DNA of 49,951 bases from Candidatus Woesearchaeota archaeon. Its GTDB lineage: Archaea; Nanobdellota; Nanobdellia; Woesearchaeales; SKGA01. The translations under genes were made by a program, and so were the position numbers. Location of the stretch: contig SKGA01000028.1 in the NCBI GenBank assembly GCA_007117735.1, forward strand, positions 1 to 49,951, written 5' to 3'. The notes beneath the pieces were generated by a model that did no database searches, was not told where the DNA came from, and saw only the letters and a list, made by a program, of their open reading frames with translations. Within the stretch, counting starts at the first letter, position 1, and the number at the start of each line of letters is the position of its first letter. This document shows positions 35,617 to 35,862 of this stretch, in pieces.

Positions 35617-35862
35617 TTAACTGGTAGTTGTAGGAACACAACAAAGAGGTCCAGGATCTTGATCAGTACAAATACCTGCAAAATTTCTAAACTCTCCTTG
35701 ACCACAAGATTGTTTACATTCGCCACCAAAAGAAGTGCACAACGTCGCTTGTTCAGTTTGACCTAGTCGTTGAAAAATTAAATAAGCAACAATTGCTAAA
35801 ATAATAAGACCAATAATGGCCATGATAATAATATTCATTGATAATTCAGCTTTTTTTCTCAC
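35617..35862 (-). CDS. Small pilin-like protein with a six-cysteine defensin-like C-terminal knot (81 aa)
   Basis: GAGGTG plus TTTTTT precedes the GTG at 35862, giving (M)RKKAELSMNIIIMAIIGLIILAIVAYLIF...CTSFGGECKQSCGQGEFRNFAGICTDQDPGPLCC. Confidence 0.6.
   Translation of the reverse strand: MRKKAELSMNIIIMAIIGLIILAIVAYLIFQRLGQTEQATLCTSFGGECKQSCGQGEFRNFAGICTDQDPGPLCCVPTTTS

Follow-up and report, generated by a model that had tools for sequence, protein, structure and literature searches.

The subject of this work is a small gene on the reverse strand of a 49,951-nucleotide stretch of DNA (contig SKGA01000028.1 of assembly GCA_007117735.1; hereafter the window) from a Candidatus Woesearchaeota archaeon. 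Translated from a GTG start codon at position 35862, the window yields the product V/MRKKAELSMNIIIMAIIGLIILAIVAYLIFQRLGQTEQATL-CTSFGGECKQSCGQGEFRNFAGICTDQDPGPLCC-VPTTTS* (81 aa), which divides into an MRKKA leader, a 36-residue hydrophobic helix (ELSMNIIIMAIIGLIILAIVAYLIFQRLGQTEQATL), a six-cysteine head (CTSFGGECKQSCGQGEFRNFAGICTDQDPGPLCC) and the tail VPTTTS. The gene lies within a block of about 25 kb on the same strand that encodes exported, often cysteine-rich proteins, many of which have pilin-like N-termini. The cysteine spacing of the head, read from the translation, is C-6-C-3-C-11-C-8-CC. A preliminary description of the locus, made from the letters of the window alone, had reported the same 81-aa open reading frame (ORF), translation and spacing, and we read all three as it did. 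It had also described the protein as ending in the six-cysteine pattern; the pattern itself is present, but it is not terminal, since the six residues VPTTTS come after it.

As judged from its sequence and conservation, the gene is real and belongs to a large Woesearchaeota (DPANN) family, so far without annotation, whose type IV pilin-like proteins measure about 80-100 aa. A six-frame search found a family match in each of the related genomes (61/61), mostly in ORFs of 80-100 aa, and a profile built from 42 members retrieved about 180 database proteins of Woesearchaeota and Nanoarchaeota. Few of these proteins carry names, and the named members are listed as a "hypothetical protein" of a Candidatus Woesearchaeota or a Nanoarchaeota archaeon. 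No Pfam or NCBIfam family covers the roughly 180 relatives, and the NCBIfam models gave no match to the window protein. When a single sequence served as the query, a word-indexed database search returned only the window protein itself, an exhaustive phmmer search of the head against 1.84 billion representatives returned itself and one partial 24-residue match in a 1544-aa protein, and a PDB search returned only a transmembrane-helix artefact, stannin. It took six-frame searches of the related genomes and a profile search to bring the family to light. The source genome (690 kb, 97.8% complete) holds one family copy, and tandem arrays of 2-6 copies are frequent in its relatives. Within that genome, a relaxed regular expression for the defensin framework matched the 35617-35862 ORF and no other among 4905 six-frame ORFs. 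Residue shuffles yielded 0.2 matches per genome, and for this reason one genome is weak evidence for the cysteine motif. The possibility of a chance ORF was rejected on the conservation of six cysteines and one glycine across a family of at least 183 members.

Two in-frame GTG codons could begin the product. The alternative lies at 35869-35871, within the GAGGTG motif itself, and would give a protein beginning MFFVRKKA; some family relatives begin MFF.KKG in a similar manner. Both candidate starts (35862 and 35871) produce a short basic leader. In family genes of the relatives, a Shine-Dalgarno (SD)-like pentamer lies 4-9 nt upstream of the start in 28 of 43 cases (background 5.5%), and such pentamers precede 16% of the long ORFs of the source genome (background 2.7%). 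Because GAGGTG, a 6-nt spacer and GTG together fit the family pattern, the GTG at 35862, chosen on the same motif in the preliminary description, was accepted as the start and is the better supported of the two. An exact TATA box (TTTAWATA) occurs upstream of 10 of 44 family genes (background 3.2%), and the matching element upstream of the window gene, TTTAAATA, suggests that this small gene has its own promoter. The first gene of an array typically carries TTTAWATA, a spacer of about 26-30 nt, GAGGTG(A), a further 4-9 nt and the start codon. Later genes of an array often retain the SD motif alone, which fits a single promoter per array.

Table 1 Coordinates of the small gene, its parts, its expression signals and related features
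Feature	Position	Strand	Basis
81-aa mini pilin-like protein gene	35617..35862	(-)	GTG start 35862, TAA stop 35617-35619; translation and family conservation
Putative class III (prepilin-type) signal-peptide leader M-R-K-K-A	35848..35862	(-)	cleavage predicted after Ala5, from family consensus
Hydrophobic N-terminal alpha-helix ELSMNIIIMAIIGLIILAIVAYLIFQRLGQTEQATL, pilin alpha-1 equivalent	35740..35847	(-)	AlphaFold helix residues 9-44
Six-cysteine head CTSFGGECKQSCGQGEFRNFAGICTDQDPGPLCC, predicted three-stranded beta-defensin-like knot	35638..35739	(-)	AlphaFold, fold and profile searches, cysteine co-loss
Thr/Ser-rich C-terminal tail VPTTTS	35620..35637	(-)	translation
Shine-Dalgarno-like GAGGTG, 6 nt 5' of GTG start	35869..35874	(-)	motif enrichment in genome and relatives
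Archaeal TATA-box consensus TTTAAATA, in the 54-nt gap behind the upstream pilin-like gene	35901..35908	(-)	exact match; putative promoter function
Four upstream pilin-like genes (166, 162, 367, 166 aa; MKRAQ/MSKAQ leaders)	35917..38505	(-)	N-termini; same-order orthologues
Downstream 388-aa gene, 15 nt after the small gene's stop	34435..35601	(-)	pilin-like helix, degenerate head, 24-Cys C-terminal extension
Sister-order loci of the head module	G084:C3, G146:C1, G128:C42, G080:C10, G292:C1		module before the C-terminal membrane anchor or as a tandem pair

The pilin-like character of the protein resides in its N-terminal half. Across the family the N-terminus reads x-K-K-[G/A]-[Q/V]-[G/E]-L-S-[L/M]-N-T-I-I-I-A-A-I-V-L-I-V-L-V-V-L, with K or R at position -3 in 87% of members, K or R at -2 in 96%, G or A at -1 in 93% and Q at +1 in 54%; the window protein carries M-R-K-K-A followed by ELSMN. 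This -3/-2/-1 consensus was used in place of a strict FlaFind-style motif, which fits just 12 of 115 relatives. By the consensus, the family N-terminus is a class III (prepilin-type) signal. AlphaFold placed a helix at residues 9-44, in a block with predicted local distance difference test (pLDDT) values of 96-97. Conservation is highest in the helix, where mean pairwise identity is 52% as compared with 31% for the head (15% when the cysteines are left out); L22 is invariant in the family, and A15, V21, V23 and V24 are each at least 90% conserved. A conserved helix joined to a hypervariable, exposed head is, in terms of sequence, the classical pilin pattern. The leader consensus and the conserved hydrophobic helix bear out the pilin-type N-terminus that had been proposed for the window protein.

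The only near-invariant positions of the head are the six cysteines and a glycine two residues before C2, the latter invariant in the head alignment. The cysteines singled out in the preliminary description are conserved in homologues, all six being kept in aligned columns by 136 of 183 non-redundant members. Loop lengths have modes of 6, 3, 11 and 5-6 and ranges of 2-9, 3-15, 9-31 and 4-18. Set against the quoted beta-defensin framework C-x(4-8)-C-x(3-5)-C-x(9-13)-C-x(4-7)-CC, the spacing of the window protein (6/3/11/8/0) agrees in order, as had been stated, and loop 4 is one residue over the quoted range. The family modes fall inside this framework, with long tails in length.

Members that have lost cysteines are informative about the probable disulfide pairing. 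In one class of four-cysteine heads, C2 and C4 are lost jointly (19 members by inspection, 17 in aligned columns); C4 is missing, and the position of C2, behind a GG that is kept, holds P, W, L, R, Q or I. In a second class (n=2), C3 is absent and the second cysteine of the CC pair has become tyrosine (CYVP, CYIS). Among the four-cysteine heads inspected, no variant contradicted C2-C4 and C3-C6 pairs, and cysteine counts in the family are almost always even (4, 6, 8, 10 or 12). A rough FastTree phylogeny required up to 13 state changes for the cysteine losses and, weak as this tree is, several of the pair losses look independent. From the joint loss of C2 with C4 and of C3 with C6, we infer the pairs C2-C4 and C3-C6 and hence C1-C5. 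This wiring, one of 15 possible, implies the beta-defensin pairing and would be neither the alpha-defensin nor the cis-defensin pairing.

The same observations bear on the idea that the cysteines form no disulfides and bind a metal (zinc, iron or copper). Six conserved cysteines inside 34 residues would suit such a site, and many DPANN archaea inhabit anoxic groundwater, in which disulfides are less expected. This idea is nevertheless at odds with the loss of cysteines in specific pairs and their even counts, with the extracytoplasmic placement of the domain (basic leader inside, C-terminus outside), with the DsbA-like oxidoreductase encoded in the genome and with a predicted fold that is a disulfide-stabilised sheet. 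A metal site was rejected on the paired losses, the extracytoplasmic domain and the DsbA-like protein, and we consider it barely credible.

To obtain a predicted fold, AlphaFold2 was run on a 93-sequence alignment. The model of the full protein (pLDDT 81) consists of the helix at 9-44 and three strands, and the head-only model (pLDDT 86.7, predicted template modelling score 0.61) has strands at 11-13, 20-23 and 36-40. A Foldseek comparison of the head with 350,542 PDB chains returned trans-defensin-fold proteins in all of the top nine positions (template modelling score 0.42-0.53, E 1.3-4.1): crocodile CpoBD13, human beta-defensins 4, 6 and 2, gallin, alpha-defensin 6 (two entries), oyster big defensin 5 and helianthamide. 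A search with the full-length model produced a similar list of trans-defensin-fold matches, and the BFVD viral fold library gave low-probability noise only. A head-only profile of 40 sequences was then searched against all PDB sequences at E <= 10, and each of its 19 matches has the trans-defensin fold. The best were a human beta-defensin (E 0.0057) and beta-defensin 106 (E 0.018), and the others included tick carboxypeptidase inhibitor, platypus defensin-like peptide 1, helianthamide, big defensin 1, beta-defensins 1 and 3 and avian beta-defensin 3. In the profile alignments the family GG-x-C stands opposite NGGRC, LKGTC and GKGGEC. Two controls accompanied this search. Shuffling the non-cysteine residues across the domain left no PDB match, and shuffling within each loop left five, three of them of defensin fold, with a best E of 0.063. 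As far as profiles can tell, the resemblance is specific to the trans-defensin fold class; much of it appears to come from the framework and the loop composition, to which position-specific residues add few bits.

The proteins were also compared with curated domain models. The window protein scored 12.5 bits against Pfam Defensin_beta_2, below the 22.2-bit cut-off, and the beta-defensin Pfam models each had weak matches in 6 of 93 relatives (best E 1.6e-4 and 8.8e-4). Against PF25052 (AtDEF-like) the window protein scored 14.2 bits where the cut-off is 25. Weak matches to this 'Defensin-like family' occurred in 20 of 93 relatives (best E 3.3e-5), a larger number than for the beta-defensin models.

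Taken as a prediction, the fold of the head points to the beta-defensin (trans-defensin) class and not to a knottin or a cis-defensin. Trans-defensins stood on top of the fold matches, and a knottin was rejected because none appeared in that search. A cis-defensin (CS-alpha-beta) fold was rejected on three features of the sequence, namely an ending of CC and not CxC, the loss of C2 together with C4, and a C2-C3 spacing that varies from 3 to 15; the head model also has no helix between C2 and C3, unlike CS-alpha-beta proteins. The compact disulfide knot on a pilin-type anchor that the preliminary description envisaged is thus consistent with the predicted fold, the probable pairing and the profile. 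Its caution that the likeness might be convergence or coincidence holds in part: coincidence is answered by the conservation in the family, and convergence is compatible with a similarity to animal defensins that is marginal (best E 0.0057) and derives largely from framework and loop composition. Homology to animal defensins is not established by it.

The vertebrate beta-defensins (PF00711, PF13841; PDB 6mjv, 2lwl, 7t9q, 5ki9, 1e4q) provide the best fold and profile matches. They share with the archaeal head a framework that ends in CC, near-identical loop lengths, the glycine two residues before C2, the probable pairing and the predicted three-stranded sheet. The archaeal head differs in being anionic and fused to a pilin helix, not released from a signal or pro-peptide, and loops 2-4 are far more variable in length in the archaeal family. 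Big defensins are antimicrobial peptides that animals secrete, and their N-terminal part forms a globular hydrophobic domain and not a prepilin helix. The invertebrate members (PDB 6qbk, 6qbl, 8bgk) do share a hydrophobic N-terminal part followed by a six-cysteine C-terminal domain, and their fold and profile matches are weak (E 0.4-10). Helianthamide (4x0n_B), tick carboxypeptidase inhibitor (2k2z; Inhibitor_I68) and the platypus defensin-like peptide (1b8w), all present among the profile or fold matches, employ the trans-defensin fold for protein binding or inhibition without cationic killing. These are secreted animal proteins, and nothing points to an enzyme-inhibitor role for the archaeal head. 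Bacterial defensins of the cis type, such as xanthusin-1 (PMC11561630), likewise represent prokaryotic disulfide-rich defensin-like domains, but they are CS-alpha-beta proteins with CxxxC...CxC, whereas the archaeal family ends in CC with 3-15 residues between C2 and C3; the joint archaeal loss of C2 and C4 does not fit the cis pairing (C1-C4, C2-C5, C3-C6).

Antimicrobial beta-defensins are strongly cationic. The net charge of the window head is -2, the family median is -1, and few members are cationic. This comparison bears directly on the proposal that the knob is a defensin-like effector, membrane-active, antimicrobial or host-lytic, acting on a pilin anchor or released from it. A beta-defensin-like framework, probable pairing and predicted fold agree with such an effector, and a hydrophobic N-terminus with a beta-defensin-like C-terminal part behind it bears a loose resemblance to the big defensins found among the weak matches. 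Apart from its charge, however, the protein has no processing site between helix and head, its loops are hypervariable with no conserved amphipathic cationic surface, and the same module doubles as a structural domain of large surface proteins. Membrane attack is argued against because the head is anionic, is fused to a conserved pilin helix and is reused as a structural module. We regard the effector explanation as improbable and a head that kills microbes as unlikely, and the membrane-active or antimicrobial function once suggested for this protein finds no favor in a head of this charge, attached to a conserved helix and used elsewhere as a membrane-proximal module.

The reuse of the head was evident from searches with the head-only profile: of 401 genomes sampled from the phylum, 94 contained a match at E <= 0.001, and these belong without exception to the same order or class. 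Two heads in tandem (12 Cys) are present in some family members, and others keep the helix and bear a different head. In sister orders, surface proteins of about 610 aa have a module of the form C-x3-GG-x-C-x3-C...C...CC-[VIY]-P directly in front of their C-terminal membrane anchor, and proteins of 460-530 aa contain it as a tandem pair. By these occurrences the six-cysteine head is a mobile extracellular module that always sits beside a membrane or filament helix. Three database members (P0116, P0120 and P0121) have the family leader and helix with unrelated heads, either an acidic low-complexity tail or a beta-type domain rich in N-glycosylation sequons, which suggests head swapping on a constant pilin helix. 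The C-terminal tails of the family are variable as well (1-25 residues).

The surroundings of the small gene are also pilin-like. Upstream of it lie, in addition to the four pilin-like genes of Table 1, a gene for a 1428-aa surface protein, and the order giant protein, four pilin-like genes, small gene or array is kept in the genus and in four of five genomes from other families of the order. The 388-aa protein encoded downstream has a degenerate head (C-SGVGGGA-W-FNTT-C...RCY) that matches the family model weakly (E 0.04). Its orthologues in the genus (405-470 aa) have a clear four-cysteine head without C2 and C4, and by its sequence the 388-aa protein appears to be a modular pilin or adhesin that uses the shared scaffold.

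Components that could process and assemble such proteins are encoded elsewhere in the source genome. They include an A24 prepilin peptidase (G000:C6:14853-15203), three T2SSE ATPases (contigs C14, C34 and C39) and T2SSF platform proteins (C14 and C34), all above curated cut-offs. A DsbA-like Thioredoxin_4 protein (G000:C36:9-683, E 2e-35) has a hydrophobic N-terminus, a Pro/Ala-rich linker and a CPFC site, and may act as the oxidase of the many cysteine-rich proteins outside the cell; the source genome yielded no VKOR. A further pilin-type candidate of 209 aa (G000:C19:1265-1891, (-) strand) has a leader and helix, MRKKAFQLSINMIVV..., that resemble those of the small-gene family.

These elements can be assembled into a mechanism. 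The pre-protein would insert in the membrane with its N-terminus inside and its C-terminus outside, and the A24 prepilin peptidase of the genome would cut off the MRKKA leader. The helix would then pack in the core of a type IV filament by means of one ATPase/platform pair, or else hold the protein in the membrane. Outside the cell the 34-residue head would be oxidised to C1-C5, C2-C4 and C3-C6, with the DsbA-like oxidoreductase as the candidate catalyst, and would fold as a three-stranded sheet of the trans-defensin class with its hypervariable loops turned outward. In this scheme the protein would be the shaft pilin of a conserved pilus-like cluster that also comprises four larger minor-pilin-like proteins and giant cysteine-rich surface proteins, and the apparatus would serve attachment to a host or a surface. 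The defensin-like knot may provide a minimal pilin head that resists proteases and stress and at the same time offers a variable binding surface.

We favor, with moderate confidence, the interpretation that the protein is a type IV pilin-like subunit of a filament and that its head is a disulfide knot of defensin fold; about half of that confidence extends to the specific role of major (shaft) pilin. The shaft is proposed because of the small size, the apparent promoter of its own, the tandem duplication, the variable loops and the position after four minor-pilin-like genes. The preliminary description had considered a tip module; with 81 aa, tandem duplication in the family and a place after four larger pilin-like genes, the protein fits a shaft or a simple surface protein better. 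According to Makarova et al. 2016 (PMC4858521), the major pilins of archaea usually measure about 70 aa, exist in several copies and readily undergo tandem duplication, and one ATPase clade that is present in nanoarchaea could not be matched with its cognate pilins. The Epd pilus protein MMP1685 of Methanococcus maripaludis (arCOG06620) resembles the window protein in its class III signal, in which [KR][GA] precedes the cleavage site and +1 is often Q, and pilins of the MMP1685 type share the very small size, the multi-copy tandem genes and the larger minor pilins alongside (PMC4858521). No sequence relationship to them is detectable, as neither Class_IIIsignal/DUF361 nor another pilin model matches; the Woesearchaeota protein differs in its six-cysteine, three-disulfide head and its DPANN lineage, and for it filament formation is only proposed.

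Several results weigh against this interpretation. No Pfam pilin model (including Class_IIIsignal/DUF361) and no NCBIfam pilin model reaches threshold, and the sole trace of such models is a weak, low-score match of Flp1_like in 12 of 93 relatives (best E 0.0013). The peptidase, assembly ATPase and platform genes are all on contigs other than that of the pilin-like cluster. The genome also encodes a 195-aa archaellin-like protein (MKQKKAVVGIGTLIIF..., G000:C34:663-1247, (+) strand), which adjoins the C34 ATPase and platform genes, and a 148-aa PilA-like protein (G000:C26:8834-9277, (+) strand); because the genome holds these other pilin candidates, a major-subunit role is not exclusive to the small gene. 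As for the head, E-values of 1-4 in a fold search are by themselves without significance for a domain of this size, and the cysteine pattern alone may have led AlphaFold to recall defensins.

Class III signal peptides are also found on archaeal proteins that do not form filaments. The protein could accordingly be a membrane-anchored surface mini-protein that never enters a filament, its helix, cleaved or not, serving as an anchor and its knob acting at the cell surface, for example in S-layer or host contact, or as a spacer. The membrane-proximal position of the same module in the surface proteins of sister orders and the lack of linkage between the cluster and the ATPase and platform genes are both in accord with this possibility. 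The helix, in contrast, is conserved far beyond the needs of an anchor (52% identity, some positions near-invariant), the four pilin-like genes keep their synteny with the small gene, and small size with tandem duplication is typical of major pilins (PMC4858521). A surface mini-protein outside any filament is, in our estimation, the main alternative, though rather doubtful. The filament-subunit interpretation is retained, and the protein probably builds or decorates an attachment filament.

Apart from the small gene and its neighbors, the window encodes an aspartyl-tRNA synthetase (1463-3145, (+) strand) of the bacterial type with a GAD domain. Its Woesearchaeota relatives reach 65% identity, and many of the remaining matches are to bacterial metagenome-assembled genomes at about 45%. 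Several of its close relatives are deposited as 'uncultured Methanosarcinales archaeon', a label that looks wrong. Judged by the neighbors of this synthetase, the source genome is that of a Woesearchaeota-type DPANN archaeon.

A search of the literature found no report of a defensin-like domain in archaea or in a pilin, and the present family is absent from the main text of a 2026 census of archaeal type IV filaments (PMC13705601). Trans-defensins have been known from vertebrates and some invertebrates only (PMC11561630, the 2024 bacterial-defensin paper). If the predicted fold is correct, the new element here is a type IV pilin-like protein whose head belongs to a fold class not reported outside animals. 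The same framework, wiring and predicted fold in archaea would represent a striking convergence on a minimal three-disulfide sheet or, less probably, a fold far older than animals. It is a long shot, in our view, that the protein is both a true, ancient member of the trans-defensin superfamily and the long-missing major pilin of Woesearchaeota, with the whole pilus surface made of defensin-fold knobs. If that ancient membership were true, either the fold would have a prokaryotic (DPANN) origin or gene transfer between archaea and animals would be required.

A disulfide-stapled scaffold of 34-40 residues that tolerates natural loops of 3-15, 9-31 and 4-18 residues may also be of interest for peptide engineering. 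DPANN archaea are regarded as living in attachment to other cells, and their attachment apparatus is almost wholly unannotated. The family described here would provide a concrete and widespread candidate for a filament subunit of Woesearchaeota, one that is small enough for synthesis.

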